51,901 nucleotides of DNA from a bacterium. GTDB lineage: Bacteria; Patescibacteriota; Minisyncoccia; Phycocordibacterales; UBA2100. Under the pieces are notes generated by a model. It made no database searches and had not been told where the DNA came from. It saw only the letters and a program-made list of their open reading frames with translations. The position numbers and the translations under genes are program-made. The stretch spans positions 1 through 51,901 of the forward strand of contig JAUSJH010000021.1 of the NCBI GenBank assembly GCA_030647655.1, read 5' to 3'. Below, in pieces: positions 4,720 to 33,518 of the stretch (the first letter of the stretch is position 1; the number at the start of each line of letters is the position of its first letter).

Positions 4720-5470
4720 ATCCAAGAGGCGTCACCTCTTGGATTTGAACTCGCGGTTGAGGTCGGCGTAATAGTCGCGCATTTCAGCGAGCACCACGGA
4801 AAATCGCGGAAGACGGTCTATCAAGACGCTTCGTGCCGATTCATCCAGAATACCTCGCTCTATTCGCTCGATATCGCTTGCGTAGTCGGGGAAACTGGAA
4901 AATGGATACTGCGCGAGTTTTCGCTGAAGCGCAACCAGATTGGACACCTTACCGCGCTTCCACGAATGCTCGAATATTTCTACGGCATTAAGATGGATAT
5001 ATTGAGCAACTCGGTATAGGTATGTGTCGGTTGATACGTGCTTTGAACGAAACGGCTTCACGAAGATGTTGCCGACGCGGCCATGTTTTTCGTTGAAATA
5101 CATGCTGTATCCAGTGCCAACTTTCTGCATGAATCTCGATATGCCATCATCCTCGATCTCTTGAATAAGGAGATGGTAGTGATTCCTCATCAAACTATAT
5201 GCGCCAATCGCGACTATGGGACGTGTCCGGGGCATTCGAAGGATATCTTCATGTTTCCGGTGATAAAAGTTTTCACGCCGAATGGGCTCACTATCATTAG
5301 CCAGATAAAGTAACTCGGTGAATCGCTCCGCATCACGTTCATCCGTGAAGACAATACGCTTGTCTATGCCACGGGAGTAGCAGTGATACCACTCATCGGG
5401 CGCGAACGGTACTCGCCTGTACCCCATTACTCCAGCCTAGCACAAATCCAAGAGGTGACGCCTCTTGGAT
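4720..5470 (-). mobile_element. HUH transposase bracketed by 28-bp palindromic (REP-like) inverted repeats
   Basis: 4720-4747 ATCCAAGAGG-CGTCA-CCTCTTGGAT-TTG is the exact reverse complement of 5443-5470. Confidence 0.85.
4732..5427 (-). CDS. REP-associated tyrosine transposase (RAYT / Y1_Tnp, IS200-like HUH)
   Basis: YHCYSRG, YSLMRNHYHLL (HUH), YFNEKHGRVGNIF and YIHLN (catalytic Tyr) motifs. Confidence 0.9.
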   Translation of the reverse strand: MGYRRVPFAPDEWYHCYSRGIDKRIVFTDERDAERFTELLYLANDSEPIRRENFYHRKHEDILRMPRTRPIVAIGAYSLMRNHYHLLIQEIEDDGISRFMQKVGTGYSMYFNEKHGRVGNIFVKPFRSKHVSTDTYLYRVAQYIHLNAVEIFEHSWKRGKVSNLVALQRKLAQYPFSSFPDYASDIERIERGILDESARSVLIDRLPRFSVVLAEMRDYYADLNREFKSKR

Positions 5471-18745: not shown

Positions 18746-18808
18746 AAAAAACAAGAAGCGTAGCGACTATGTTTTTCTCGATGCAGCAGTACTCTGCGGC
18801 GCCAAAAA

Positions 18809-19291
18809 TTAGTTTAACCACCAAATACCGAGCGAGAGATAGGCGGCGAAGAATATCCATGCTAGATAGGGGAGCATGAGATGCGCGGCGCGACGATCAA
18901 TTCCCCACGCGCTTGCGATGAGTGAGAGCACGGTGAATCCGAGGAACAGCACATCCACAAATGCAACAAGCGCCGAGTGGAGCCCGAAGAAAAACACCGT
19001 CCATGCCGCGTTAAGAAGCAGTTGCAAAAAATAAAAACGCACCCATGCGCGCGTTTGCTCCGATTGCTGCTTCTTCGTCCAAACGATCGCGAGCGCAAGC
19101 GCCATAAGAAAATAGAGAACGAGCGAGACGATGATGACCACCAAATCAGTGGGCGTGAGCGGCGGCTTCGCGAGTCCTGCATACCAACTCGAGACCCGCG
19201 TATCAACAAATAAATATCCGACCAGTCCCGCCCCCAAAGTGGCGAGGAACGCCATCCCTACCCGAATGAACGGGTCCATGATCTTCAGCAT
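18809..19291 (-). CDS. tspO: TspO/MBR family tryptophan-rich sensory protein
   Basis: WYAGLAKPPLTP, QLLLNAAWTVFFFG and PYLAWIFFA motifs. Confidence 0.92.
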   Translation of the reverse strand: MLKIMDPFIRVGMAFLATLGAGLVGYLFVDTRVSSWYAGLAKPPLTPTDLVVIIVSLVLYFLMALALAIVWTKKQQSEQTRAWVRFYFLQLLLNAAWTVFFFGLHSALVAFVDVLFLGFTVLSLIASAWGIDRRAAHLMLPYLAWIFFAAYLSLGIWWLN

Positions 19292-19881: not shown

Positions 19882-19946
19882 GTGGTTGAGATTATCCACT
19901 AAAACTGATGCGTTCTCAAGCGTCCTCTGGTATACTCTGGTTCAAC

Positions 19947-20903
19947 ATGGAGTACAAGATCTTCAGCTTGGGTGGAAACGACGGACTTGCCAAGAAGATA
20001 TCAGCGCGTCTCGGCATGCCTCTCGGCGAGATAAAGTGCCGCTCTTTTAGCGATGGTGAACAGCAGGTGCAATTTTTGGAGAACCTGCGCGGCAAGAATG
20101 TCTTCCTCATACAGCCGACGAACCCTCCGGCGGAAAATTGGGTACGGCTCATGCTCGCGATAGACGCCGCGCACGGCGCTTCTGCGCGTGAGATAACCGC
20201 AGTCGTACCGTATTTCGGATATTCGCGGCAGGATAGGAAGTCGAAGTCGCGCGAGCCCATCTCGGCTCGCGTTTTCGCGACGACACTCGAGACCGTCGGC
20301 GCGACGCGCTTTCTCACGATGGACCTTCACAACGACGCTATCGGAGGATTCTTCCGCCACACCATCGTCGACAATCTCTACGCGCGTCATGTGTTCGTTC
20401 CGCACTTCAAGGAGCTTTTCAGAAGCGCGCTCGCGGCGGACAAACTCGTCGTTGTCTCACCTGACGCTGGCGGTGTAGTCCGTGCGCAATCATACGGCAA
20501 GCGGCTGATGAAAGACGGCGAGCTCGCGATAATCCACAAAGAGCGGGACATGCCCAATAAGATCGCACGTATGAAATTAATCGGAGACGTGAAGGGGAAG
20601 GTCGCACTCATTGTAGACGATATGGCGGATACCTGCGGCACACTCGCCCGTGCGGCCGGCCTTTTGGCAGAAAGTGGAGCTCGTGAAGTCTATGCGACAG
20701 CAACACACGGCCTGCTCTCGGGAGATGCGCTCAAAACGCTCGAAGATTCGCCTATCAAGAAACTTTTTATTACTGATACCATCTCCGCCGACCGCCCGCT
20801 CAGCGAAAAGATAGAGGTCGTGTCGGTGGGCGACATATTCGGCGACGCGATACAACGTATCGAGTCGGGGGAGTCGCTTAGCGCTTTGTTTGAGACCGAA
20901 TAG
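19947..20903 (+). CDS. prs: Ribose-phosphate pyrophosphokinase
   Basis: FSDGE, PYFGYSRQDRK, VVSPDAGG and VDDMADTCGT motifs. Confidence 0.96.
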   Translation: MEYKIFSLGGNDGLAKKISARLGMPLGEIKCRSFSDGEQQVQFLENLRGKNVFLIQPTNPPAENWVRLMLAIDAAHGASAREITAVVPYFGYSRQDRKSKSREPISARVFATTLETVGATRFLTMDLHNDAIGGFFRHTIVDNLYARHVFVPHFKELFRSALAADKLVVVSPDAGGVVRAQSYGKRLMKDGELAIIHKERDMPNKIARMKLIGDVKGKVALIVDDMADTCGTLARAAGLLAESGAREVYATATHGLLSGDALKTLEDSPIKKLFITDTISADRPLSEKIEVVSVGDIFGDAIQRIESGESLSALFETE

Positions 20904-20929
20904 GGGGAGGAGTGATGAGATGACCTCGA

Positions 20930-21001
20930 GCTCTCGTCGTTCAATGGATAGGATGGCTCCCTCCGAAGGAGCTGATGCAGGTTCGATTCCTGCCGAGAGC
21001 A
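20930..21001 (+). tRNA. tRNA-Arg(CCG)
   Basis: GCTCTCG/CGAGAGC acceptor; GCTCC-CTCCGAA-GGAGC anticodon arm. Confidence 0.92.
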
Positions 21002-21049
21002 ATTGTAAAGTGAGCGGCAGCACTTCGTCTGATATGCTAGAGTGAACAT

Positions 21050-21529
21050 ATGGAGGGCACAAAAACTTCGACACTTATTCTGATTGCGCTTGGCCTTGCG
21101 GCCGTAGTAGCTTTTCTTTTGTATATCTCGTCGCTCGGCGCCGAGAAAAGAATGGCGTCAGTCAGCAATTTCGAAGAATGTGCCGCGGCGGGGAACCCGA
21201 TTATGGAGTCCTATCCCGAACAGTGTCGCGCGCCCGATGGTCGGACATTTGTGCGCGATATTTCAAACGATGCAAGCAACGGAAGGACGGGAGATCAGGT
21301 AGTATCCAATGGTTGTGCGGTCGCGGGCTGCAGTAGTCAATTGTGCGTATCTGCGGAAGAAGCATCGGGGATCGTAACGACCTGTGAATATCGCGCCGAG
21401 TATGCATGTTATCGAGAGGCCTCCTGCGAACCACAGGCGGACGGGAAGTGTGGTTGGACGCAAACGTCGGGATTGCAGAGCTGCCTTGCGAATCCTCCCG
21501 CAATTGATACAAGCGTTCAGGTCTACTAA
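21050..21529 (+). CDS. Membrane-anchored Cys-rich surface protein (eight-cysteine-cluster-like)
   Basis: N-terminal TM; FEECAAAGNPIMESYPEQC; CAVAGCSSQLC...TTCEYRAEYACY...C...GKCGW. Confidence 0.7.
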   Translation: MEGTKTSTLILIALGLAAVVAFLLYISSLGAEKRMASVSNFEECAAAGNPIMESYPEQCRAPDGRTFVRDISNDASNGRTGDQVVSNGCAVAGCSSQLCVSAEEASGIVTTCEYRAEYACYREASCEPQADGKCGWTQTSGLQSCLANPPAIDTSVQVY

Positions 21530-21570
21530 TCGCGAGGATTTTTGGTAGGATAGCTGCGAAGCGAAATAGA

Positions 21571-21641
21571 GGGCCTATAGTTCAGCGGTAGAACGCGTCC
21601 ATGGCATGGACGAGGTCGGGGTCCGACTCCCCGTAGGTCCA
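21571..21641 (+). tRNA. tRNA-Ala(GGC)
   Basis: G3-U70; CGTCC-ATGGCAT-GGACG anticodon arm; atypical T loop TCCGACT. Confidence 0.88.
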
Positions 21642-21782
21642 ATAGGTCAGAAAATGCCGGATTAATTTCCGGCTTTTTCTGTACCTTACCATGCAGGGGA
21701 GTCGGACCGCGGGCCGCAGGCGTCGACGAGACGCTGAAGGTTTCGAGCACAGCAGTGCGAGAGGCGACTCCCCGTAGGTCCA
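21642..21782 (+). repeat. 141-bp tRNA-3'-associated element, copy A
   Basis: 54-nt spacer, antisense T-arm (21696-21708), 56-nt core (21709-21764), 18-bp duplicate of tRNA 3' end (21765-21782). Confidence 0.85.
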
Positions 21783-21900
21783 CAGAAATAAGGAGCGAAG
21801 CGACTATATTTCGTAGGATGCCGTGCGGAGACACGACGCCACAAAATTAGTATGCCGTGCGAATACGCGGCGCTACAGAATATCCGCGATTTCTGGATGA

Positions 21901-21966
21901 TATACCCCATGAGATATTTGCCTGTACATTGTTACAAAGTTTAACTTCTTTATCTCACGGGGTATA
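21901..21966. repeat. MITE-like inverted-repeat element, copy 3
   Basis: TATACCCCATGAGATA, 34-bp spacer, TATCTCACGGGGTATA. Confidence 0.8.
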
Positions 21967-21974
21967 CTTGCCTA

Positions 21975-23645
21975 ATGGATTTACGCGCCGCGATAGCGCC
22001 ACTCATTAAAGGCGACGCTCTTGACGACGCTGAAACGCTCCGAAAATTCAGCCGCGACACGAGCATTTTCGAACGAAAGCCCGCTCTTGTCGTATCGCCC
22101 AAAGATGCAGATGACGTTTCGGCGCTCGTGCGATTCGCAACTGAGGCAAAAAAGCGCGGCGAGAACATCTCTCTCACTGCCCGTAGCGCGGGGACCGACA
22201 TGTCGGGAGGCCCCCTCACTGACTCCGTCGTTGTCTCCTTCACGAAATACATGAATAAAATGGGTGAAATCGGCTCTGATTATGCGATAGCTGAGCCGGG
22301 CGTGTACTATCGTGATTTTGAAAAACAAACGCTCGCAAAAAACGGGTCTATCCTTCCTCCATACCCTGCCTCGCGTGAGATGTGTGCTTTGGGCGGCATG
22401 ATCGCGGACAACGCAGGCGGCGAGCTGACTCTGCGATACGGCAAGATGGATCGCTATGTGCAAGAGCTCGACATGGTGCTTTCTGACGGTTCGCGGGCAA
22501 CATTTAGCCCACTCGGAGCAACGGATCTTGCCAAAAAGAAAGCCGAACAATCCATCGAGGGAGAAATATATCGTCGTATGGACGAGCTTATCAGGAGCAA
22601 TCAAGACATTATCGGAGCGGCTCGCCCGAACGTAACGAAAAATTCGGCGGGGTATGCGCTGTGGGACATCTGTGATCCGAAGAAAGGCACGTTCGATCTT
22701 ACAAAACTAATCGTCGGTTCGCAGGGCACACTCGGCCTTATCACGAAAGCTCGGTTCTCACTCCTCAAAACGAAACCACATCACGCCATGCTCGTTATAT
22801 TCCTTTCTGATCTCGTGAAACTGCCGGAAATAGTGCGGCGCGTACGCGCATTCGACCCGGAATCATTTGAATCGTACGATGACCACACGTTCAAGCTCGC
22901 GGCTCGCTATGCGTACGACTTTCTCAAGCACATGGGATTGTGGCAATCTATTACGCTCGCCTTCGCTTTTCTTCCTGAAGTTTGGATGGCCATAACCGGT
23001 GGTATTCCCAAACTCGTCCTCCTAGCGGAATTTGCCGAGGACACCGATGAAGAGGCGCAAGACAAAGCTCATAAGGCGCGCGCAGCACTCTTGGACCTGT
23101 CGGTGTCAACAAAAATCGCCATTGGAACAATGGAAAAGAAATACTGGAAGATTAGGCGAGAAAGCTTTGCGCTCCTGCGGAAACATGTGCACGGTCTCCA
23201 CGCAGCGCCATTTATCGATGACATCGTCGTTCACCCCGACGACTATCCGAAATTCCTACCGGAATTGAATGCGCTCCTCGCGCAGTATGACATCATGCAT
23301 ACGATCGCAGGACACATCGGTGATGCAAACTTCCACATCATCCCGCTTGTTGACCTTGGCAATCCGGCGCATCGGAAAGCAATAATGGAATTAACCCCCA
23401 AGGTCTACGAGCTTGTCGCCAAATACAAGGGCTCGATAACGGGTGAACATAACGACGGCATCATCCGCACGCCATATCTACACATGATGTACGGTCCGAA
23501 GATACTGGAATTATTTGCCGAAACCAAACGCATCTTTGACCCTCAAAATATTTTCAACCCCGGCAAAAAGGTCAGCTTGCCTGGGGAGGGCGGCACCATC
23601 GCCGACATCGAAAAATACATGGCCCGACCCGTTGTTTCGCACTGA
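21975..23645 (+). CDS. FAD-linked oxidoreductase (GlcD / D-lactate dehydrogenase family)
   Basis: RSAGTDMSG, LGGMIADNAGG, GSQGTLG, GHIGDANFH, GEHNDG and FDPQNIFNPGK motifs. Confidence 0.9.
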   Translation: MDLRAAIAPLIKGDALDDAETLRKFSRDTSIFERKPALVVSPKDADDVSALVRFATEAKKRGENISLTARSAGTDMSGGPLTDSVVVSFTKYMNKMGEIGSDYAIAEPGVYYRDFEKQTLAKNGSILPPYPASREMCALGGMIADNAGGELTLRYGKMDRYVQELDMVLSDGSRATFSPLGATDLAKKKAEQSIEGEIYRRMDELIRSNQDIIGAARPNVTKNSAGYALWDICDPKKGTFDLTKLIVGSQGTLGLITKARFSLLKTKPHHAMLVIFLSDLVKLPEIVRRVRAFDPESFESYDDHTFKLAARYAYDFLKHMGLWQSITLAFAFLPEVWMAITGGIPKLVLLAEFAEDTDEEAQDKAHKARAALLDLSVSTKIAIGTMEKKYWKIRRESFALLRKHVHGLHAAPFIDDIVVHPDDYPKFLPELNALLAQYDIMHTIAGHIGDANFHIIPLVDLGNPAHRKAIMELTPKVYELVAKYKGSITGEHNDGIIRTPYLHMMYGPKILELFAETKRIFDPQNIFNPGKKVSLPGEGGTIADIEKYMARPVVSH

Positions 23646-23664
23646 CCGGCACGAGACTATGCCG

Positions 23665-23982
23665 CTATACAAGCTTCAGGACGTGAAGTAGGAAGAATCC
23701 TGCGATGACACCAACGGCCAGAATAACGGCAACAGTCTCTAAGAAGATTATTGTGGAGAGCCGCGGCGCATGTTTCAAACGTAATGTCAGACTAGCGACG
23801 GTGAACAATCCGAGTGCGAGAGCGCCCTTGCCGAGCCAGTGGTGATAAAACGTCGCCTTGAGCCAATCCTTAAGTGCGGGTGTTTCTTCCGCGCTGACGA
23901 TGAGTACTGCAAGCATCAATGATGTCACGATAGTCGCGATTGCGACTGAACGAACCCACGAAGCGAGTGGTGAGTTCATCAT
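23665..23982 (-). CDS. Small membrane protein
   Basis: Three hydrophobic segments, HHWLGKG; 4-bp overlap with upstream gene. Confidence 0.7.
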   Translation of the reverse strand: MMNSPLASWVRSVAIATIVTSLMLAVLIVSAEETPALKDWLKATFYHHWLGKGALALGLFTVASLTLRLKHAPRLSTIIFLETVAVILAVGVIAGFFLLHVLKLV

Positions 23983-24425
23983 ATTGAGCCGGAGACAAAC
24001 ATGCCTGATGCCGCCGTTGCCACTCCGATTACTAGCGCTACGAACGTCAAAAGCGCCGTGCTTTTTCGAAGCCCGTCATCCGGATTTGCACGTAGATATG
24101 AAGCGCAAAGTGCGATTGAGAGCGCGACGAATGGCAGAACGAGGAAAATATGTTCCTTCGTCTCCATAAAGAAAGTATGCGCGACGGGCGCGGCCCCTGC
24201 GAGTATTCGCGGTTTGACCGCCGTGCCGTAGTACGTCACGTAATAATAGGCCGATGTCGCCCACGATAATAAGAAGAGTGCCGCGGCTGACCACGCGAGG
24301 CGCGAGATAAACACGTAGTTCGGTGCTTTCTTGAGGAGGTGCATTAGGACGACGTTGTGCATGCCTATCGCGATAATACCGCCGATGACGTGGACAATGA
24401 GCAGGGCGGCAAGGGTAGTCGTCAT
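23979..24425 (-). CDS. Membrane protein (about 4 TM, His-containing)
   Basis: HVIGGIIAIGMH...YYYVTYYGTAVKP...HTFFMETKEH; 4-bp overlaps on both sides. Confidence 0.75.
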   Translation of the reverse strand: MTTTLAALLIVHVIGGIIAIGMHNVVLMHLLKKAPNYVFISRLAWSAAALFLLSWATSAYYYVTYYGTAVKPRILAGAAPVAHTFFMETKEHIFLVLPFVALSIALCASYLRANPDDGLRKSTALLTFVALVIGVATAASGMFVSGSI

Positions 24426-24925
24426 ACTTTTCGTGGTGCGTGTGTGCGGGCGCGTATCCAACGCAAACCAAGACCTACCAGCACGATAGCAATCGCGTAG
24501 TATGTCAGTATTTCAAAATAGGATGCACTGGTTTTACCGATGACTCCCAGAACGAGCGCGGCATACCATGAGGTGAGCGACACCGCGGCGCCTACAGCGA
24601 ACGGCATTATTCGCGCCTGAAGAAGGATTGCGTTCCCGACAAGGACTGCGACAACGGTCATTTTGGCCCAGAACGATGGACTGGTGAGGATTCCCACGTG
24701 TTCTGTGAGCCGGAAATACAGCAAAAATCCAAAGCCCGATATGACGAGCAGGAAAAGCCCCGTCCGCATGACGGTATAGGTTACCGCGAGCACCTTCCGC
24801 TCTTCATCGTTGACGATGTCGTCGCTATTGAAACGTGTGTAATATATTTCGGCAAATGTCGCCGCGCCGACACCAAGGACGGTGCCGATCACATGCATGA
24901 TAACCAAAAGTTCCATTAACGTCAT
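24422..24925 (-). CDS. Membrane protein (about 5 TM)
   Basis: HVIGTVLGVGAAT...FWAKM...SLTSWYAALVLG. Confidence 0.75.
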   Translation of the reverse strand: MTLMELLVIMHVIGTVLGVGAATFAEIYYTRFNSDDIVNDEERKVLAVTYTVMRTGLFLLVISGFGFLLYFRLTEHVGILTSPSFWAKMTVVAVLVGNAILLQARIMPFAVGAAVSLTSWYAALVLGVIGKTSASYFEILTYYAIAIVLVGLGLRWIRARTHAPRKV

Positions 24926-25506
24926 ATACCTTGTGATCCTAATTCTCGTACCTGCGCCACCCATGCATCGTGCTTCACCGGTTCTGAATGCTCGGCCGGT
25001 CCCATTGTCGTTACGTGCACATCCATACCTGAGAAACCGAGGATGCCGCGCGATATCTCATTCGTATAATCGCCGTATTTCAACCGTGTCATAAAAGGAC
25101 TATGAGCTCCGTCAACGACGATGACGCGAGCCGTCTTACCCTTCAGCAATTCTACTACATCGTGAGTCTCCTTATCAAAATGAAATGCGAAGCCAGGCAA
25201 CCATATCCGGTCGAACATACCCTTGAGGAGAGCGGGCATGCTCGTCCACCAATTCGGGTACAAAATTACCACATGGTCAGCCCAACGTATGTTCTCCTGC
25301 ACGAGCTTAAGATCTGGCTCAAGAGGTTGAATTTCACTGTACCCCTTGTGCAGGATGGGATCGAATCGTAACTCACTGAGATTAACTCGCTTGGTTTCAT
25401 TGCCAGCAGCGCGAGCCGCATTTTCGTAGGCGTCGGCAAGCTCTCCAGTAAATCCATGGAGATGGGAATGACCGACCAATATGAATATCTTACGACTTGA
25501 TGCCAC
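24922..25506 (-). CDS. Flavodoxin-fold NAD(P)H:quinone oxidoreductase family, copy 1
   Basis: LVGH, FDPILHKGY, WADHVVILYPNWWTSMPALLKGMFDR motifs. Confidence 0.9.
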   Translation of the reverse strand: MASSRKIFILVGHSHLHGFTGELADAYENAARAAGNETKRVNLSELRFDPILHKGYSEIQPLEPDLKLVQENIRWADHVVILYPNWWTSMPALLKGMFDRIWLPGFAFHFDKETHDVVELLKGKTARVIVVDGAHSPFMTRLKYGDYTNEISRGILGFSGMDVHVTTMGPAEHSEPVKHDAWVAQVRELGSQGI

Positions 25507-25533
25507 GGGTTCAGTATAGCGTATAATAAACAC

Positions 25534-25917
25534 GTGAAAAAGGTATATTGGGAAATACTAATCAGCGCAACTTTTGTCCTCGGGGGCGCTTTTTTAATGT
25601 ACGGTCAACTGGAGGGCAAAACGGCATTTTGGGATGCGCAGTCTGTTTGGAGCGTGGCGCTTGTCACCTGCTGGACGATGGTTGCGGCCGGATATTATTA
25701 CCAAGGCTGGATGATACACCATGGACACACATCGGTTAACGTTTCCGCTGTCCTGCCGTCAATTGTTTTTGTTGTGCAGTGTATTTTGTTCATTAAAGGC
25801 ATCTTTTTTCACGACTGGTCACTGATTTCCGGTGCTCTTATTGTGAACTCGGGAGTTGTTTTCTGTCTCTACCAGATCATCAAAGCAGAAAAGAACTGGA
25901 CTCCATCAAGACACTAA
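25534..25917 (+). CDS. Hypothetical membrane protein
   Basis: Four hydrophobic segments; TATAAT 6 nt before GTG. Confidence 0.65.
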   Translation: MKKVYWEILISATFVLGGAFLMYGQLEGKTAFWDAQSVWSVALVTCWTMVAAGYYYQGWMIHHGHTSVNVSAVLPSIVFVVQCILFIKGIFFHDWSLISGALIVNSGVVFCLYQIIKAEKNWTPSRH

Positions 25918-25921
25918 GACA

Positions 25922-27508
25922 TCAACCCCACTCGATAGTCGCAGGCGGCTTGTCGGAAATGCGATAGACAATGGCACCCACTTCGCGCACCTCGTTGGTG
26001 ATACGGCGGGAGACGCGATCGAGAAAGTCGTAGGGAAGCTGTGCAAAACGCGCCGTGAAGCCATTCACACTCCAAACAGCCCATAGAGCGACCACAGCGC
26101 CTTGGCCGGCATCATCGCCCTTGGAGACGGTGTGTTTTGAGTGTGTGAGCGTAGCTCCTGCTTGCCAGACTGTTTTATATAGGTCAGTGACACGCAATTC
26201 TTCTATATAAATGCCGTCTATGGCACGGGCGATTTTGAGGTTCTCTGCAGTTACTTCGCCTTCAATTCGCACTACCAAGCCAGGGCCGGGGAAGGGGTGA
26301 CGCACCAAAAGGTCCTCGGGAACGCCGATATCTCGGCCGATGTTGCGAGCGGAATCTTTGACCTGGTCTTCAAGTGGAATAAGTTCTGGAACGGAAAATC
26401 CGAGCTTTACGTTGTGGTGCACTTTTATCTCCGCGACGCGCGCGCCGGTTGCGTGCCCATGTCCGCTTTCACGTATATCGGTATAGAGCGTACCCTGTGC
26501 GATAAAGTCAGCGCCGAAGTCTTTTATTTTCTCCTCCAGCACTTTTTTGTATACGTCGCGCACCGCAAGCCGTTTCTCGCGCATGTCGGTCTTGCCTTTG
26601 AGTGCTTTCAAGAAGTCTTTTGTGGCGTCGGCAATCTCGAGCTCCATCCAGTTCTCGTTACCGAAATACTTTTTCACATACGCTTCGTCATCTGGTCGGT
26701 CAATACCACGGATATAAATCCCCTTAAGTTTGGCGCCCGCTTCTTTCAGAAGATATGCGACGACCGAGGAATCCGAACCTCCGGAGAGAGCGATAAGCAC
26801 TTTCTTGCCGCTGGCGACCTTCTTCAACTCTTGGATTTTCTCCTGCGCTACATTGTGCGCAGGGAAACGGTCGGTAATGCCGCAGAGATTTACAAAATTC
26901 TCATATATTTTGGGGCCTTCTTCGGTGTCCGTCACTTCCGGATGAAATTGCACACCCCAGAGATGTTTATATCTTCCCGCCGCGACAGGCGCATTATCCG
27001 TCGAGCCGAGATTTTCGAGTGCAGAGCCTTCTTCGACAGAGTCTCCGTGCGTCTCAAGCACCTTACTCTCTCTCGCGATTCCTTCAAAGAGTGGATCATT
27101 GCCAGTCGTTTTGAAAGTATGTATGCCGAATTCACGCTTCTCGTGTGGGGTGACTTTTGCACCGACATGCTTTGCCCACATCTGGAATCCGAGACATACG
27201 CCAAGAGTGGGAATACCGAGGTCGAAAATATTCACGTCGAACGGTGGCGGTTCACTGTGTACAGAGGCGGGGCCGCCAGAAAGAATGATGCCGGCAGGCG
27301 CAACCTTTTTCACATCCGCCGCCTTTACACTCGCTGGGTCCGCAACGACACAAAAGACCCCGAGCCTAGCTAACTGCTGCACGATTAGATGGTCGAATTG
27401 TGAGCCCATTGAGAAGAGGAGAATGAAATGCTTTGTTTGTCGCACGTGCATCTCTTCATCTATCCCTTCAAGCGCTTCTTTCGAGGCTGTTTTGAAGATC
27501 TTCAACAT
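25922..27508 (-). CDS. guaA: GMP synthase (glutamine-hydrolysing)
   Basis: ILSGGP, GVCLGFQ, QFHPE, SGGSDS, HPFPGPGL and KPPATIEW motifs. Confidence 0.96.
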   Translation of the reverse strand: MLKIFKTASKEALEGIDEEMHVRQTKHFILLFSMGSQFDHLIVQQLARLGVFCVVADPASVKAADVKKVAPAGIILSGGPASVHSEPPPFDVNIFDLGIPTLGVCLGFQMWAKHVGAKVTPHEKREFGIHTFKTTGNDPLFEGIARESKVLETHGDSVEEGSALENLGSTDNAPVAAGRYKHLWGVQFHPEVTDTEEGPKIYENFVNLCGITDRFPAHNVAQEKIQELKKVASGKKVLIALSGGSDSSVVAYLLKEAGAKLKGIYIRGIDRPDDEAYVKKYFGNENWMELEIADATKDFLKALKGKTDMREKRLAVRDVYKKVLEEKIKDFGADFIAQGTLYTDIRESGHGHATGARVAEIKVHHNVKLGFSVPELIPLEDQVKDSARNIGRDIGVPEDLLVRHPFPGPGLVVRIEGEVTAENLKIARAIDGIYIEELRVTDLYKTVWQAGATLTHSKHTVSKGDDAGQGAVVALWAVWSVNGFTARFAQLPYDFLDRVSRRITNEVREVGAIVYRISDKPPATIEWG

Positions 27509-27589
27509 GTTTCCGCCATCGTACCACGTAGGGGAGCCAATCTCCTAAACGGATGAGGATTCCATGAAGGTGTGGATAACTGGCTTGCG

Positions 27590-27635
27590 GTGGGGTATAG
27601 TGGTATATACTCTATGACAGTGGGAAAAAGTGGGA
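27590..27635 (+). promoter_or_regulatory. MraZ operator-like GTGGG repeats with 10-bp periodicity
   Basis: GTGGG 27590, GTGGT 27600, GTGGG 27620, GTGGG 27630 upstream of mraZ; matches the known MraZ box pattern. Confidence 0.75.
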
Positions 27636-27652
27636 AACAGACACTTCATGCT

Positions 27653-28087
27653 ATGTTCATCGGCGAATACGAGCACAATCTCGACGAGAAAAATCGAATA
27701 TCACTGCCGAAGGCTTTCAGATCGGCGTTCGGTAAAAGATTCGTCATGACGCGAGGGCTCGACAATTGCCTCTTTGCATATCCGCGAGCGAGTTGGGAGA
27801 AGGTCGCAGCAAGGCTGCAAGAACTTTCTTTCGCCCAAGCGGATACGCGCGGCTTCAACCGATTCATGCTCTCAGGAGCCACAGAAGTGGAAGTGGATGG
27901 CGCGGGAAGAATTCTCATTCCCGAACATCAACGAAGCTTTGCTGGCTTGAGGAAACGCGTGGTCTTCGCAGGGGTTTCGGACCGTATAGAGGTCTGGGAC
28001 GCCGAACGGTGGACAAGCTACAAAGCAAAGATCGAGAAGGACGCAGAGAGGATGGCCGAGAAATTGGGCGAGATCGGCGCACTCTAA
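27653..28087 (+). CDS. mraZ: Division/cell wall cluster regulator MraZ
   Basis: MFIGEYEHNLDEKNRISLP and DGAGRILIP motifs. Confidence 0.96.
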   Translation: MFIGEYEHNLDEKNRISLPKAFRSAFGKRFVMTRGLDNCLFAYPRASWEKVAARLQELSFAQADTRGFNRFMLSGATEVEVDGAGRILIPEHQRSFAGLRKRVVFAGVSDRIEVWDAERWTSYKAKIEKDAERMAEKLGEIGAL

Positions 28088-28126
28088 TTTCGTAATGCCA
28101 GACCACTGGAAGACCTTTTAAACGTC

Positions 28127-29056
28127 ATGCGCACGCGACGCCCACAGTCTTCCAGTGATCCGGTGTTGGGAACACAGCACCGACCCGTTCTTTTACACGA
28201 AGCAGTCGAATTCCTAGCTTTGAAACCAGACGACACGGTTGTTGATGCGACACTCGGAGAGGCAGGGCATGCACTCGCCAGTATAGGGGAACTTGGCGAG
28301 CACGGAATATTTGTCGGATTCGATCTCGATTCCGATGCAATCGAGCGAGCCAGAGAAATGCTCAAAGGTGCTGCACCCGAAGTCCATATCGTCGAGGCGA
28401 ATTTTCGCGCTCTCGCTCGCGAACTTTCAACGCGAGGAATATCGCGGGTCGACAAAGTTTTGTTCGACCTTGGGTGGAGCTCCCGCCAGCTCAACTCCGG
28501 AAGAGGATTCTCGTTGAAGGGTGATGAACCGCTCCTCATGACGTACTCCAAGGGCGTGACAGCGCTCACAGCGGCAACCATCGTAAACAAATGGTCCGAG
28601 GAGTCGCTAGCTGATGTCATCTTCGGATGGGGAGAGGAGCGATACTCGCGACGAATCGCAAAAGCTATTGTCGAGCATCGTTTCGAAAAGCCGTTCACAA
28701 CAGCGCGAGAACTTGCGGAAGCAATCTATGCGGCAGTGCCTCCGAGATACCGCCACGGTCGTATACATCCCGCCACGCGAACGTTCCAAGCACTTCGTAT
28801 TGCGGTCAACGACGAGCTAGGGGCGCTTCGAGAAGGTCTCGCAAATGCATGGAAAGTTCTTTCGAAAGACGGGAGGATAGCCGTCATAACCTTCCACTCG
28901 ATAGAAGATAGGCTGGTGAAGCAAACTTTCAAACTATGGGAGGACAGTGGTGAAGGGAAGCGACTGACAAAAAAGCCTTTGACTCCGAGCGCCGAAGAGA
29001 TTAGAGACAATCCTCGGTCTCGTAGTGCAAAACTTCGTGTGATCGAAAAACTATAA
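28127..29056 (+). CDS. rsmH: 16S rRNA m4C1402 methyltransferase
   Basis: HRPVLL, DATLGEAGH, DLGWSS, FQALRIAVNDEL and NPRSRSAKLR motifs. Confidence 0.96.
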   Translation: MRTRRPQSSSDPVLGTQHRPVLLHEAVEFLALKPDDTVVDATLGEAGHALASIGELGEHGIFVGFDLDSDAIERAREMLKGAAPEVHIVEANFRALARELSTRGISRVDKVLFDLGWSSRQLNSGRGFSLKGDEPLLMTYSKGVTALTAATIVNKWSEESLADVIFGWGEERYSRRIAKAIVEHRFEKPFTTARELAEAIYAAVPPRYRHGRIHPATRTFQALRIAVNDELGALREGLANAWKVLSKDGRIAVITFHSIEDRLVKQTFKLWEDSGEGKRLTKKPLTPSAEEIRDNPRSRSAKLRVIEKL

Positions 29057-29063
29057 AGAAAGT

Positions 29064-29465
29064 ATGAGAGCCCGTATACATAAAATAAGCAGACACGTCC
29101 CCTCGATATTTCAGGGGAGGTTGGATTTTAATACTACACAGCACCGTATTTCGCTCTCTATTGAGCACCCCGCGGAGCTACTCGCGCTCCGCGTGCTCGC
29201 CATCGCACTCATCGCACTCGTTTGCGGCTATCTTTATTTCGTTTCTGCGTCTGTCCTCAACGTGATGTCGCGCAAAGAAGCACTTACTCGTACTGCTCTT
29301 ATACAGGGAAGTATAGGTGGATTGGAACAAGAATATTTCAAATTGTCACAAAGCGTCAAACCGAATTCAGGTGCGGCTTTGGGGCTTTCTCCTGTTTCGC
29401 AGACGCAATACGTATATCGACCCGGTAATGTTGGAGCTGTTACAATTGTTCGCAATGAAATCTAG
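29064..29465 (+). CDS. Probable FtsL-like cell division protein
   Basis: Single TM plus short coiled coil between rsmH and ftsI; start uncertain. Confidence 0.6.
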   Translation: MRARIHKISRHVPSIFQGRLDFNTTQHRISLSIEHPAELLALRVLAIALIALVCGYLYFVSASVLNVMSRKEALTRTALIQGSIGGLEQEYFKLSQSVKPNSGAALGLSPVSQTQYVYRPGNVGAVTIVRNEI

Positions 29466-29477
29466 CCGCGAGACCCT

Positions 29478-31184
29478 ATGAGGTCCCGTTTTATTTTCCG
29501 CACAAGGGTTTTGTGCGGACTGTTTATCATCGTGGCGCTATTTCTCATCGTGCGTTTGTATGTTGTGCAGATCGTGCGCGGCGCAGGGTATCAGAGAGAC
29601 GCGACGGCACAATATGTGGCACCAAATCCTGATACGGGAAGCCGCGGCAGTATTCTTTTCCGCGCGAAGAACGATGAGCTCGTTTCGGCAGCTATCATGC
29701 AAACGGGCTGGCGTATCGCGATAAAGCCCGAAGATATAAATGAGCCAGAAAGCGTGTACGAAAAGTTGAACGCGCTTACCCCAATCGATCGTGAGCGTTT
29801 TTTCGTGAATGCAGCGAAAAAAGACGACCCGTATGAAGAGGTCGCTTTTCGTGTGGCCGACGATGTCGGACCTAAAATTCGCGCGCAGAAGATTCCCGGC
29901 GTAATACTCGTGCAGGATCAGTGGCGCTTCTATCCGGCGGGTACCCTCGCGGCACAAACAGTCGGGTTCGTTGGCTTCCGAGGAGCGACCAAAGCGGGGG
30001 TCTATGGGCTCGAGAATGAATGGGAGGAAACCCTCTCGCAAAAGAGAAGTGACCGCTATGTGAATCCGTTTGCGGAGATATTTATGAACATCGAAGCTGT
30101 GGCATCGAACGATCCCTCTGCGCATGAAGGTTCTATCGTGACTTCCATCGAGCCGTCTGTGGAGCAGCAACTTGAAACGACACTCGAGGCTGTGATGAAG
30201 ACATACTCGCCTCGCCTCGCGGGCGGTGTCATCATGGACCCGCATACAGGAGAAATAATCGCCATCGCAGCACATCCCACATTTGATCCCAACGCGTACA
30301 GTATTGTCGAAGACCCGGCTGTATTTTCGAATCCGCTCGTCGAAAATATCTATGAAATGGGTTCCATCATGAAGCCGCTTACGATGGCTGTGGGTATCGA
30401 CAGGGAAGTCGTCACGCCTTCGACCACGTACGACGACACGGGTTGCATCGAGAAAAGCGGCAAAAAGATATGCAATTACGACGGCAAAGCGCGCGGCGTC
30501 GTTTCTATGCAGGAAGTCTTGAATCAGTCATTGAATACCGGCGCGTCGTTCGTCGTGGACAAAATCGGGCACACCATCTTTGGCACCTATGTGAAAGCGC
30601 TCGAGCTCGGGAAAAAGACCGGCGTCGACCTGCCGAACGAAGCGACGGGGCGTATTCAACCAATAGAAAATGGATACGATGTGGATTACGCGAGCGCCTC
30701 CTTCGGACAGGGAATATCTGTTTCTCCGATTGCGATGACGCGCGCGCTTTCGGCACTTGCAAATGGCGGGGTCCTGCCAAGCCCGCACGTCGTAACCGCT
30801 ATCAAATATCAAAGCGGCATTACCCGCACTATCAAACCAGAGGAAGGACCGCGTGTTTTCAGTGCGACATCGACGGATACGGTAACGCGCATGCTCGTAA
30901 CCGTTTTCGACAAGGCGCTCTTGGGCGGAGTACTGAAACAAGAGCATTATTCCATCGCGGCGAAAACGGGCACCGCACAAATCGCGGTTTCCGGCGGGTA
31001 CTCTCCTGATCGCTTCCTCCACTCATTTTTCGGATACTTTCCGGCACACGACCCGAAGTTCATCGTTTTCCTTTTCGCGGTCGAGCCGCACGGCGCCGAA
31101 TTTGCCTCTGCGACGCTCGCACGACCCTTCCTCGAGATTGCGAAGTTCCTCATCAACTACTACAACATCCCACCGGATAGATAA
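29478..31184 (+). CDS. ftsI: Class B penicillin-binding protein (FtsI/PBP3)
   Basis: YEMGSIMKP, SLNTG and KTGTAQ motifs; dcw context. Confidence 0.9.
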   Translation: MRSRFIFRTRVLCGLFIIVALFLIVRLYVVQIVRGAGYQRDATAQYVAPNPDTGSRGSILFRAKNDELVSAAIMQTGWRIAIKPEDINEPESVYEKLNALTPIDRERFFVNAAKKDDPYEEVAFRVADDVGPKIRAQKIPGVILVQDQWRFYPAGTLAAQTVGFVGFRGATKAGVYGLENEWEETLSQKRSDRYVNPFAEIFMNIEAVASNDPSAHEGSIVTSIEPSVEQQLETTLEAVMKTYSPRLAGGVIMDPHTGEIIAIAAHPTFDPNAYSIVEDPAVFSNPLVENIYEMGSIMKPLTMAVGIDREVVTPSTTYDDTGCIEKSGKKICNYDGKARGVVSMQEVLNQSLNTGASFVVDKIGHTIFGTYVKALELGKKTGVDLPNEATGRIQPIENGYDVDYASASFGQGISVSPIAMTRALSALANGGVLPSPHVVTAIKYQSGITRTIKPEEGPRVFSATSTDTVTRMLVTVFDKALLGGVLKQEHYSIAAKTGTAQIAVSGGYSPDRFLHSFFGYFPAHDPKFIVFLFAVEPHGAEFASATLARPFLEIAKFLINYYNIPPDR

Positions 31185-31189
31185 ATAGT

Positions 31190-31528
31190 ATGCAATGCAA
31201 GACATGTAAAGTAATCTCGCGTTTTTCCGGCAAGAAATTCCTCATGCCGCTCCTCGGTCATCGGTATTCGATAATTACTCTCGAGGCAGTGCGAGTGCAC
31301 GTGAGCGACCTCGATCTTGAGATAGGGGGAGGATTGGAAACCCGCGGGTGGACCTCCAATGATATAGATGTGAACGGCACTCGGGCCGATGTGTCGGTGT
31401 TTGCGAAGCGGCTCAAACAAAACGGGATAGAGCATCCGGTCCATTACTGTGGTCCGCATACAGGGCACTCACACGTTCTCTGTGCATTAAATGGCATCAA
31501 GCTGGCGCTCACGGGGAGAGGGTACTAG
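31190..31528 (+). CDS. Hypothetical protein
   Basis: ORF exactly fills the gap between ftsI and the next gene; CxxC at N-terminus; no recognised family. Confidence 0.5.
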   Translation: MQCKTCKVISRFSGKKFLMPLLGHRYSIITLEAVRVHVSDLDLEIGGGLETRGWTSNDIDVNGTRADVSVFAKRLKQNGIEHPVHYCGPHTGHSHVLCALNGIKLALTGRGY

Positions 31529-31533
31529 TTGAT

Positions 31534-32226
31534 ATGCCAACAGATTACACCTACGCGTACACTCTGCTCGTTTGCTTCTTCACGCTTGTATGGGTAATTT
31601 TATTTATTATACGTAAGGATCTCCGGCGAGAAATGTTCATCATGTCTCTCCTCGCGGCCCCGCTCGGGCCTTTCGGTGATTTTTTCTATCAGCGCGATTA
31701 CTATCTACTTCCCATCCTGAACGGACATTACTGGTGGATATATTCTCTCGCGTGCGGTTTCGTCTATGGCGGTGTAGCGGCGGTGCTCTATGAGACGCTC
31801 TTGAAAGAACATCACCGTATCCAGCGGGGTATCCGTAAAAAACAGGGGAGGCATTATTGGTGGTTTTGGGCCGTCTTTTTAGGCGGCGGTGCCTTCATGT
31901 ATGTGGGCACATTCTTACTGCAGATAAACTCGATTTATGTTTCTTTTTGCGTGATGTTTTTGGGGGCTTTATGGATCGGCTATCAGAGGAAAGATTTGTT
32001 GGTCGAGGCTGTCGGAAGCGGACTTGCTCTCATGGCAGTAACGACAGTTTTCTACCTTGTGCTCCAACTCGTATTTCCCGGGATATTTGAGACTCAATGG
32101 AACATCGCAAGTCTCTCGGGCCTGTTTATTCTCGGGATTCCGGTAGAGGAATACGTATGGGCCTTTATGTGGGGTCTTATCACAGGACCCGCGTATGAGT
32201 ACGTAATGGCTATAAAGATGCGATAA
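31534..32226 (+). CDS. Lycopene-cyclase-domain-like membrane protein
   Basis: Two repeated halves RKDL..E; C-terminal ILGIPVEEYVW motif. Confidence 0.65.
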   Translation: MPTDYTYAYTLLVCFFTLVWVILFIIRKDLRREMFIMSLLAAPLGPFGDFFYQRDYYLLPILNGHYWWIYSLACGFVYGGVAAVLYETLLKEHHRIQRGIRKKQGRHYWWFWAVFLGGGAFMYVGTFLLQINSIYVSFCVMFLGALWIGYQRKDLLVEAVGSGLALMAVTTVFYLVLQLVFPGIFETQWNIASLSGLFILGIPVEEYVWAFMWGLITGPAYEYVMAIKMR

Positions 32227-32271
32227 ACACTTCCGTTTTGTCTTAATTTGAAATACAATCGCCCAGTGTGC

Positions 32272-32343
32272 GGCTCCATCGTCTAACGGTTAGGACGGAA
32301 GCTTCTCAAGCTTCAAATCGGGGTTCGATTCCCCGTGGAGTCA
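32272..32343 (+). tRNA. tRNA-Glu(CTC)
   Basis: GGCTCCA/TGGAGTC acceptor; GAAGC-TTCTCAA-GCTTC anticodon arm. Confidence 0.92.
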
Positions 32344-32484
32344 AAATTTTGGCGCAGCCGAATATTTGGCCCTACAGCGAAGTGATACACTTCGCGTGGG
32401 GAATTGAACCGCGGGCCGCAGGGCTCGAAGAGAGCCCGAAGGTTTCGAGCGTGCCAACGCGAGAGGCGATTCCCCGTGGAGTCA
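32344..32484 (+). repeat. 141-bp tRNA-3'-associated element, copy B
   Basis: 54-nt spacer, antisense T-arm (32398-32410), 56-nt core (32411-32466), 18-bp duplicate of tRNA 3' end (32467-32484). Confidence 0.85.
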
Positions 32485-33013
32485 CAATGTAGAATTTCGG
32501 CAGGAGTGAGCGAAAAACTCCCGCGCGCATAAGCTCAAACGCTCCCAACAAGGAAGCGGTGTAAACGATGTCGCCCGTGAGCATATTGCGTAGAAATGGA
32601 ATACCGAGTTCGTACGAATACAAAAGACCGAAAATACTCTTTTCGTACCACGGCGAGAAAAGCCACACCGCGGCATTTGTAATAAGGAAGAAAAATAGTG
32701 ATGACGCAATGACCGAAAGAAAGACAGGGAGAACTCCGCTATATTTCCTACTCATCCAGCTCCAGCATCCGATGAGGGCAAAAGAGCCGTACACGCTCGC
32801 CATGATTTTCCAATCATAAAAACCGATGAACATATCTGACAAGAACAGCGCACAGAGAGGAAGAAGCATAGACCATCGCTTGCCGAGATAGATGCTGCCC
32901 GCGAAAGCAATCGCGGTTATAGGCGTCGCGTTGGGGAGATGCGGCAGTAAACGTACCATGATGCCAAAGCAAACGAGCGCACCCGCCGCGAGCAAGATGT
33001 GGTTGCGCCGCAT
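32372..33013 (-). CDS. DUF6580-like membrane protein, putative ECF-type S component
   Basis: RLLPHLPNATPITAIA...LFLSDMFIGFY...FFFLITNAAVW...GIPFLRNML.GD; C-terminus reads through the tRNA-associated element. Confidence 0.75.
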   Translation of the reverse strand: MRRNHILLAAGALVCFGIMVRLLPHLPNATPITAIAFAGSIYLGKRWSMLLPLCALFLSDMFIGFYDWKIMASVYGSFALIGCWSWMSRKYSGVLPVFLSVIASSLFFFLITNAAVWLFSPWYEKSIFGLLYSYELGIPFLRNMLTGDIVYTASLLGAFELMRAGVFRSLLPKFYIVTPRGIASRVGTLETFGLSSSPAARGSIPHAKCITSL

Positions 33014-33016
33014 AGG

Positions 33017-33451
33017 CTAGAATGTAGATTCGCCAAAGTACCACTCGACGGAATCACCACCCTTCAAAACGTACGCATCCGCACCAATTTGAGGCATAAC
33101 CCCGTTCACTTTGTACTGCCAATATTTCTTATCAGTACCATTTTTATTCCCATGCATCCCGTCAACCAACGTGCCCAGTCCCGAATACTCTTTCGTAGAA
33201 AGCTGAAGCTGTGAATCTCCTGTATTCATTGTCTGCAGTATTCCAAGCACCGTGGCGTTCTCTGATATTGGCACGGATTTGTTCGTATACAGACCCTCAA
33301 TCGTGATAGATACGGTACCTGTCTGCGTAACTTCCTGCCGCGCAGAGCTAGCCGGTGATGTTGTTTTGCCCGTGTATGCAAATAATCCCGCGACAAAAGC
33401 GAGGAGCAACAATCCAATTCCTATTATCTGCCAAGTTCGTTTTGAGCTCAT
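33017..33451 (-). CDS. DUF4430 domain protein (transcobalamin C-terminal-like), membrane anchored
   Basis: GLGTLVDGM...YWQYKVNGVMPQIGADAYVLKGGDSVEW. Confidence 0.8.
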   Translation of the reverse strand: MSSKRTWQIIGIGLLLLAFVAGLFAYTGKTTSPASSARQEVTQTGTVSITIEGLYTNKSVPISENATVLGILQTMNTGDSQLQLSTKEYSGLGTLVDGMHGNKNGTDKKYWQYKVNGVMPQIGADAYVLKGGDSVEWYFGESTF

Positions 33452-33518
33452 ATCGTCCGTATCTGATTACGAATATAACGGTGGTGTTCCATCGTCTCCA
33501 TTCCTCATGTATAGCATA

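Follow-up and report, generated by a model that had tools for sequence, protein, structure and literature searches.

The window analysed here, a stretch of 51,901 nucleotides (nt) of DNA (contig JAUSJH010000021.1, GenBank assembly GCA_030647655.1), comes from a bacterium of the Patescibacteriota (Minisyncoccia; Phycocordibacterales; UBA2100), and two of its tRNA genes, tRNA-Ala(ggc) and tRNA-Glu(ctc), are each followed by a short element composed of a spacer, an arm antisense to the T-arm of that tRNA, a structured core and a repeat of the tRNA 3' end. This element looks like an undescribed kind of mobile cassette that targets tRNA genes. It belongs to one family, which occurs across metagenome-assembled genomes (MAGs) of Patescibacteria, ultra-small bacteria of the CPR group, and is patchy among close relatives. 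With a confidence slightly short of even, we read it as an integrative cassette that is non-autonomous, has the T-loop of tRNA and transfer-messenger RNA (tmRNA) genes as its specific docking site and is moved in trans. This reading is founded on the linkage to tRNA genes (tDNA), the fold, the patchiness and the ancestral look of the distal copy of the tRNA end, as well as on tandem arrays, cargo genes, the joint travel of spacer and core, and the little room left for a promoter.

Seven tRNA genes were identified in the window by ARAGORN. The parts of the element behind tRNA-Ala(ggc) are as follows, R1 being a covariance model built from 15 short copies of the family:

21571..21641 (+): tRNA-Ala(ggc), the docking gene (ARAGORN; Rfam tRNA 59.9 bits)
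21624-21641: copy A, the last 18 nt of the tRNA, from T-loop position 56 to the discriminator
21642..21695 (+): spacer, 54 nt, with a terminator-like hairpin at 21656-21673 and then a T run
21696..21708 (+): antisense arm, 13 nt, exact reverse complement of tRNA positions 52-64
21696-21704 with 21765-21773: predicted helix P1
21705-21708 with GGTT at 21739-21742: possible pairing, helix A
21709..21764 (+): type-1 core, 56 nt (pattern match, covariation, R1 100.1 bits)
21709-21718: invariant core segment, 10 nt
21719-21724 with 21730-21735: predicted core hairpin P2, loop GANGA
21739-21746: T-loop-like core segment GGTTTCGA
21743-21750 with 21755-21762: predicted core hairpin P3, containing a tandem G-A
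21763-21764: core linker GG
21765..21782 (+): copy B, 18 nt, exact match to the tRNA 3' end at 21624-21641
21783..21860 (+): native-looking trailer, a hairpin with a conserved loop motif and then downstream sequence

The second copy has the corresponding parts:

32272..32343 (+): tRNA-Glu(ctc), the second docking gene (ARAGORN, Rfam), with copy A at 32326-32343
32344..32397 (+): spacer, 54 nt, with a hairpin that lacks a T run; no terminator called
32398..32410 (+): antisense arm, with one T-for-C change against perfect antisense
32411..32466 (+): type-1 core (R1 100.9 bits)
32467..32484 (+): copy B, exact 18-nt repeat of the tRNA-Glu 3' end, followed by CAA

A preceding sequence-only reading of this DNA had described the Ala copy as a 54-nt spacer, an exact antisense arm of 13 nt, a 56-nt core and an 18-nt repeat, and had noted the same layout at tRNA-Glu. 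The Ala copy is built precisely in this way, the first 9 nt of its copy B being the P1 partner of the arm. The Glu copy has the same parts at the same places, but its arm is inexact, the T-for-C change giving a G:T wobble with the copy. At both loci the two flanks match the local tRNA, as had been claimed, and the Glu core shares identical constant blocks with the Ala core and has P2 and P3 stems altered in a compensatory manner. The core pattern is matched twice in the window and never in 100 shuffles, and neither 141-bp unit contains an open reading frame (ORF) of its own. Antisense through the Glu element runs an ORF with a DUF6580 domain, 32372-33013 (-), which extends about 49 codons past the Pfam domain; its C-terminus may have been changed or lengthened by the Glu insertion, unless the tail arose by chance.

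The genome from which the window derives (0.9 Mb in 21 contigs, 99% complete; hereafter the source genome) has 41 tRNA genes. Seven of them are followed, 119-200 nt downstream, by an exact copy (at least 12 nt) of their own 3' end, and arm, core and copy are present at all seven. R1 matches nine places in this genome, of which eight follow a tRNA (Ala, Glu, Gln, Ser, two Arg, Asn and Leu) and one is an orphan; 8 of the 41 tRNA genes carry the element. Among 36 other genomes of the genus R1 scores in six, five of them credible (a weak match of 25 bits in genome G411 was judged not to be an element), and all ten true matches follow a tRNA. R1 did not score in any of 24 genomes that represent other families of the order, and the exact core pattern was found only in the source genome when 400 genomes of the phylum were scanned, a sample and a pattern that were too narrow. 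In a pattern scan of species-representative genomes, full elements were found in MAGs labelled Saccharibacteria, Kaiserbacteria, Nomurabacteria, Harrisonbacteria, Paceibacterota and Parcubacteria/Patescibacteria, and outside the phylum the matches listed were mostly due to chance. A metagenome scan matched 109 stretches, and linkage was counted over 80 loci of these, in which 67 copies fitted a fuller pattern: 50 have a same-strand tRNA gene at most 400 nt upstream (16 isotypes), three lie behind a tmRNA gene, five are orphans, and nine are too near the edge of the locus to judge. A tRNA or tmRNA gene precedes 53 of the 58 evaluable copies. The search of this genome and its relatives that had been proposed thus returned a real family, tied to tRNA and also to tmRNA genes; the expectation that every core match would follow a tRNA holds for most of them, but orphans exist. 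The suspicion that the family is undescribed was also supported. A scan of the window at Rfam gathering thresholds returned the seven tRNAs and no element family, a permissive Rfam 15 scan (E<=5) of seven source-genome loci gave no match on any element, whether to self-cleaving ribozymes (hammerhead, twister, twister-sister, pistol, hatchet, HDV-like), to tRNA-like elements or to other families, and a literature search that included motif strings found no description of it.

The fixed geometry proposed from the two window copies was not upheld in the wider family. Spacers range from -5 nt, with the arm overlapping the tRNA end, to 72 nt and are unrelated between copies, and cores range from 56 to 112 nt owing to an extra hairpin module; the shared 54-nt spacer and the 141-bp period are a coincidence of the two window copies. 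The claimed 18-bp duplication proved constant at one end only. In all 42 cases in which copy and tRNA match exactly over at least 6 nt, the copy begins in the T-loop at position 56, which lies 18-21 nt from the end of the tRNA; its 3' limit is variable. At least three other core types share the layout of arm, core and copy:

source contig C20 21405-21517, locus L169 and locus L012 (Cys): core type 2
source genome (Leu) and locus L012 (Arg): core type 3
genome G412: a further core type

The extra hairpin module, of about 54 nt, is found on source contigs C3 (Arg-tct, Arg-gcg), C20 (Ser) and C19 (Asn) and at loci L033, L079 and L095. It has two insertion points: Arg copies have it behind GCGGGC, Ser copies behind GCGGGCCGCAGGC. 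Its Arg form allows a flanking GCGG/CCGC pairing, and it looks like a module with its own separate history. A different hairpin, with a 17-nt loop motif (AGGAGCGAAGCGACTAT and variants), occurs at 18746-18830 and 21783-21860 of the window, directly behind tRNA-Ala(cgc) and behind the distal copy of the Ala element, and at C6:1539; the same motif is the long hairpin of type-3 cores (source C3:8039, L012). The metagenome loci L195 and L199 have in common a conserved non-coding stretch of about 120 nt, without an Rfam match at the gathering threshold, which lies some 100-250 nt upstream of orphan elements.

A structure of four helices is proposed for the element. In this model, the arm and copy positions 56-64 form P1, helix A pairs the last arm bases with GGT(T) of the core, P2 is a 6-bp hairpin with a GANGA loop, and P3 is a hairpin with a tandem G-A at its base. 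Over 15 sequences, 91.6% of the cells are paired compared with 74.9% in shuffles; over 88 distinct sequences the value is 93.1% against 77.4%, reached by none of 500 shuffles, and slid controls give 25-44%, although this larger alignment was fitted to the model and is hence biased toward it. The internal hairpins covary, as the sequence-only reading had stated from two copies: both alignments bear this out, P2 having both-sided changes at 6/6 pairs, and with 88 sequences P3 is paired in 99.4% of cells; for P1 the figure is 86.5%. In the 88 sequences, conservation reaches 90% or more at about 35 unpaired or junction positions. Several of these were set by the search patterns; the first scan left the 5' block ACCGCGGGCCGCAG free. 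The mismatch counts point to the tRNA-sense strand as the folded one, since G:T outnumbers A:C by 29:7 in P2 and P3 together. The corresponding counts are 35:26 in P1 and 1:15 in helix A, so that only three pairs of the latter are credible, and the first 15 sequences, with 13 G:T and 15 A:C, had no strand bias, a count superseded by that of the 88. Folding of the plus strand gives z-scores of about -2.4 to -2.8 that are similar for RNA and DNA, and folding therefore cannot separate RNA from single-stranded DNA. Arm, core GGTT and copy together recreate the duplex of tRNA-gene positions 52-64, and the branch point of P3 falls exactly between positions 55 and 56, where the duplication starts. 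With regard to GC skew, five of the eight element-bearing tRNA genes are on the G-rich strand and three on the other.

The conserved fold would also suit a structured non-coding RNA that works as RNA, be it a ribozyme, a tRNA-related regulator or a decoy, and we consider this possible, if on the unlikely side. Such an RNA would be transcribed in the sense of the tRNA, either within the tRNA trailer or through read-through; arm and copy would merely close P1 or permit pairing with the T-arm of the tRNA, and the tRNA-derived ends would be a by-product of the gene's arrival. Near-invariant unpaired positions beside freely covarying stems, across distant Patescibacteria, are the signature of a functional RNA, and the G:T excess of the core helices, the conserved tandem G-A and the GANGA loop are in line with it. 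Moreover, some copies have no spacer or a spacer without a terminator, which makes co-transcription with the tRNA unavoidable there, and core and P1 stay intact even where the acceptor part of the copy has decayed. However, in many spacers a strong terminator stands directly ahead of the arm (in the Ala copy about 14 nt separate the T run from the arm), and such copies would have little room for a promoter. No Rfam 15 family, including every self-cleaving ribozyme class, scores even weakly. An RNA with a cellular role is also difficult to reconcile with an element carried by only 8 of 41 tRNA genes and patchy within one genus, or with at least three unrelated core types of the same architecture, and it leaves the tandem arrays and the cargo genes unexplained.

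What was inserted can be approached through the sequences behind the two copies. Three comparisons suggest that the distal copy B, together with what follows it, represents the ancestral tRNA end. The second tRNA-Trp of the source genome lacks the element and has the same sequence as the filled tRNA-Trp of genome G434, in which an encoded CCA and a similar trailer stand behind copy B and copy A has no CCA. In element-free relatives tRNA-Glu reads TCA followed by CAA, the same as copy B in the source genome, and copy A reads TCA followed by AAA. The trailer behind the Ala element (21783..21860) is homologous to that of tRNA-Ala(cgc), 18746 onward, and this region is matched at 82-85% in three genus genomes. 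If copy B is ancestral, then copy A, spacer, arm and core would be the inserted part. Trailers were compared here in place of syntenic empty sites, since in 60 and 30 genus genomes the flanking genes of the window loci showed no synteny with these tRNAs, and unit boundaries were assigned by eye.

Several loci indicate how the parts are held together. Spacer, arm and core are kept together in the orthologous Gln copies of the source genome and G410, and likewise in an orphan at L202, where a later insertion has separated all three from the tRNA. At L012, two identical 159-nt units stand in tandem and are followed by the same terminator again. Behind tRNA-Ser on source contig C20 there are three consecutive units: the first is a mini unit, the second contains the gene of an 899-aa P-type ATPase and terminates in a different core type, and the third, again a mini unit, is almost the same as the first. 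The ATPase genes found between units in two unrelated genomes look like cargo:

source C20:18677-21376 (L129 4678-7377): P-type cation/heavy-metal ATPase between units
L033 2346-4265: P-type cation/heavy-metal ATPase between two units, tRNA-Tyr

At L195, DUF5677, methyltransferase and bPH_2 genes lie between two units with the same copy.

A further possibility, in the spirit of the sequence-only reading and its internal guide, is that the core alone (56-112 nt) is the mobile part. Both tRNA-matching flanks would then be made from the target at insertion, by guide-directed single-strand transposition of the IS200/IS605 kind or by template switching, with the arm as an internal guide pairing with target positions 52-64. 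We regard this as distinctly unlikely, although a number of observations would suit it. The cores behind tRNA-Arg-tct and tRNA-Arg-gcg are identical at 108 of 112 positions and their spacers are unrelated (29/57), while each arm and copy matches the local tRNA. The orthologous Gln copies share spacer and P3 and differ in their P2 stems, and the same P2 stems recur at other tRNAs. A fixed start and a variable end of the copy fit as well, and so do the trailers behind copies A and B, which are often related to each other (identical in L012, 13 nt common in G434 Tyr, 5 nt in L085), as a long target duplication would also yield. Furthermore, the arm tracks tRNA position 55 in two lineages, and Y1/HUH transposase-like genes are numerous, with four in the source genome. 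On the other hand, we know of no mechanism that would copy its target in inverted and in direct orientation alike, and IS200/IS605 elements are not known to produce a target duplication. HUH genes are not associated with the element, spacer and core move together in L202, one lineage's arm departs from its tRNA, and gene conversion through the shared homology of arm and copy accounts for the Arg pair. An active process that reprograms the arms is not needed to explain these data, which integration of a unit carrying a tRNA end, together with homogenisation, explains equally.

A role of the arm as a true guide can be considered apart from the mobility of the core alone. The core would then be the scaffold of a nucleic-acid-guided recombination, based on single-stranded DNA or RNA, with positions 52-64 as the target and exchange between positions 55 and 56, a possibility that we hold to be rather unlikely. 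The arm matches the tRNA even at position 55, outside the duplication, in two lineages (source Ala, L075 Trp), and in one lineage (G424 Arg-ccg) it departs from the tRNA at that position. The tracking of position 55 fits a guide-like role and is no demonstration of one.

It could further be argued that the elements are inert scars, that is, tRNA fragments displaced by islands borne by integrases or serine recombinases, with the hairpin-rich stretch as a conserved island edge or REP-like repeat that has no role of its own. Serine-recombinase islands do seem to target tRNA genes in the genus. In the source genome, large serine recombinase genes at C20:16087-17862 and C11:1020-2777 adjoin the 3' ends of tRNA-Glu(ttc) and tRNA-Gln(ttg), and others adjoin the 3' end of tRNA-Ala(ggc) in L281 (G401) and L282 (G431); the far ends of the two source islands were not found, as the contigs break inside them. 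There are also orphan tRNA 3' fragments without arm or core that start at positions 49-52, one in the source genome (C10:8444-8465, -) and one in L282, about 150 nt behind tRNA-Arg(ccg), which look like ordinary displaced attachment (att) fragments, and many distal copies of the element have decayed. Contig C10 was considered as an extrachromosomal element and ruled out, chromosomal genes being present on it, and additional 13-mer copies of the Pro, Val and Trp tRNA ends turned out to be chance matches within coding sequence. In this genus, tDNA is a hot spot for islands. Of neutral scars, however, one would not expect that P2 and P3 change in a compensatory way, or that junction bases are nearly invariant throughout the phylum. 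An antisense arm is foreign to ordinary att sites, most units contain only a terminator and no island, and no recombinase gene is adjacent to them; taken as a whole, we find the scar explanation improbable. That the answer lies outside all four of these accounts (cassette, RNA, core alone or scar) seems to us very improbable indeed.

The enzyme that would move the cassette was sought by domain models. No integrase is present in the window among what was scanned, in agreement with the sequence-only reading, but the window does contain a transposase-like gene:

4732-5427 (-): Y1/HUH gene, 231 aa, IS200-like and weakly REP-associated tyrosine transposase-like

The same 21-nt hairpin stands on both sides of this gene, at about 4722 and 5448. 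The four Y1/HUH genes of the source genome each have their own flanking hairpins, and these are unlike the element cores. An ORF at 19908-20903 was examined as a recombinase candidate and rejected as phosphoribosyl pyrophosphate (PRPP) synthetase. The source genome encodes two tyrosine recombinases, whose best models are XerC/XerD/XerA-like and which score below the NCBIfam equivalog cut-offs; neither is an integron integrase (model scores of 132 and 63 bits against a cut-off of 265). Four resolvase-domain matches were obtained, two of which are the large serine recombinases adjoining tRNA 3' ends. No reverse transcriptase (PF00078), no IS110 DEDD transposase (PF01548) and no TnpB was matched in the source genome, and of the three enzyme classes whose co-occurrence with the element had been proposed as a check, reverse transcriptase thus drops out and the other two do not point to a partner, as discussed below.

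The scheme that we favour for the cassette is as follows. The inserted unit would comprise a replacement tRNA 3' end (copy A), a spacer that is usually only a terminator and sometimes includes genes, the antisense arm and the core, and the displaced native 3' end would come to lie behind it as copy B. Arm, core and tRNA-end copy would form one continuous stretch in the free form. Pairing of the arm with core GGTT and copy positions 56-64 on the tRNA-sense strand would mimic the T-arm duplex 52-64, and the folded site would serve as the recombination substrate, aligned with the T-arm of the target, with one strand exchanged between positions 55 and 56 by an enzyme acting in trans (host Xer-like, HUH or other). 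What the sequences show is anatomy, fold, linkage to tDNA, patchiness, arrays and cargo; which way the insertion went, that the active form is single-stranded DNA and which enzyme serves it are inferred.

A considerable number of observations weigh against this scheme. Neither a free or circular form nor an excision event was observed: when contigs of four DNA runs were compared with window positions 20500-33500, they broke at tRNAs and elements, ending at the repeats, and none of those listed skips a unit. The single joint, from 21721 to 32424, corresponds to the shared core, and these contigs carry no information on excision or expression. No pair of empty and filled strains was found, and viral contigs gave no match with two patterns. 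No recombinase could be linked to the element. The neighbours of 21 copies are housekeeping genes with no recurrent recombinase among them; large serine recombinases are present in 22 of 37 genus genomes without correlation with the element, which occurs in genome G432 without any; and Y1/HUH genes were found in 8 of 8 genus genomes tested (1-10 copies each), with or without the element, a distribution that is uninformative. The Arg pair implies gene conversion between cores if spacer and core move together, and otherwise a core that moves alone; similarly, the P2 stems of the Gln copies mean either that cores are homogenised by gene conversion via shared arm and copy sequences or that the core is mobile alone. 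Some distal copies end sharply inside the acceptor strand (e.g., L024 at position 69) and are then not intact ancestral tRNA ends, unless altered later. Lastly, the G:T bias fits RNA just as well, is weak in P1 and was absent from the first 15 sequences.

The element fails the defining features of every named family tested and is best filed beside mobile elements that integrate in tDNA and depend on hairpins. By analogy, its closest counterparts in logic would be integron attC sites and the CTX-phi hairpin, and by location the tDNA islands. Like an attC site, it is an imperfect inverted repeat around a variable or structured middle that would fold on one strand, and like integron cassettes the units form arrays at one docking site, contain no recombinase, and are empty or carry one or a few promoterless accessory genes. 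Unlike an integron cassette, it docks in the T-loop of tRNA and tmRNA genes and not in attI, its arms copy the target, members of one core type have a conserved middle sequence, and no integron integrase is encoded in the genome. The consensus of the attC core sites is RYYYAAC for R'' and GTTRRRY for R', and the arm ATCGAAC and T-loop GTTCGAT are each one position off this consensus. IMEX elements integrate at the chromosomal dif site. The proposed cassette resembles CTX-phi and IMEX in the folded single strand with a stem that imitates a double-stranded chromosomal target, in the tandem arrays, in having an inverted arm, a loop and a hybrid site at one end, and in a host recombinase that would act in trans, the use of Xer here being only a guess; it differs in its target (tDNA instead of dif), in units that go down to about 120-140 nt and in the absence of phage genes. 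With IS200/IS605 elements, PATEs (palindrome-associated transposable elements) and REP/RAYT systems it has in common strand-specific hairpins, a tiny size and the possibility of being non-autonomous. The reading of an IS200/IS605 target by pairing with an internal guide beside the hairpin can be likened to the arm, and the G(T/A)AG motif ahead of P3 resembles the GTAG that precedes REP hairpins. However, IS200/IS605 guides are 4 nt long, whereas the arm has 13-18 nt and the direct repeat at least 18 nt. Other systems with which the element may be compared are genomic islands of the Islander type in tRNA and tmRNA genes (see PMC4383910), cis-mobilisable elements (CIMEs) and tycheposons (see 10.1101/2020.12.28.424599). 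Such elements share with ours the restoration of the tRNA 3' end and the displacement of the native fragment as a direct repeat, together with tmRNA targets, tandem accretion and cargo. Unlike an Islander-type island, the element has no integrase, most of its units contain only a terminator, and a target-antisense arm and a covarying core adjoin the displaced fragment.

Genes for tRNA and tmRNA are the classic landing sites of mobile DNA, and the elements known to use them bring an integrase and plain double-stranded att repeats. Here, a unit of about 90-150 nt without genes occupies one in five tRNA genes of a genome of 0.9 Mb. The most ordinary reading would still leave a widespread RNA or DNA motif absent from Rfam, and one that will mislead island callers based on tRNA fragments. 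If the arm guides the reaction, the element would be a very small retargetable integration module: changing 13 nt would redirect an element of about 60 nt run by a small host enzyme, a natural programmable integration that differs from bridge RNAs, attC sites and IS200/IS605 guides alike. Should the folded end prove to be a recombination site, the family would parallel integron cassettes at tDNA, in organisms about whose routes of gene exchange little is known, and it would explain how accessory genes, such as those for metal ATPases and methyltransferases, come to be stacked behind tRNA genes.

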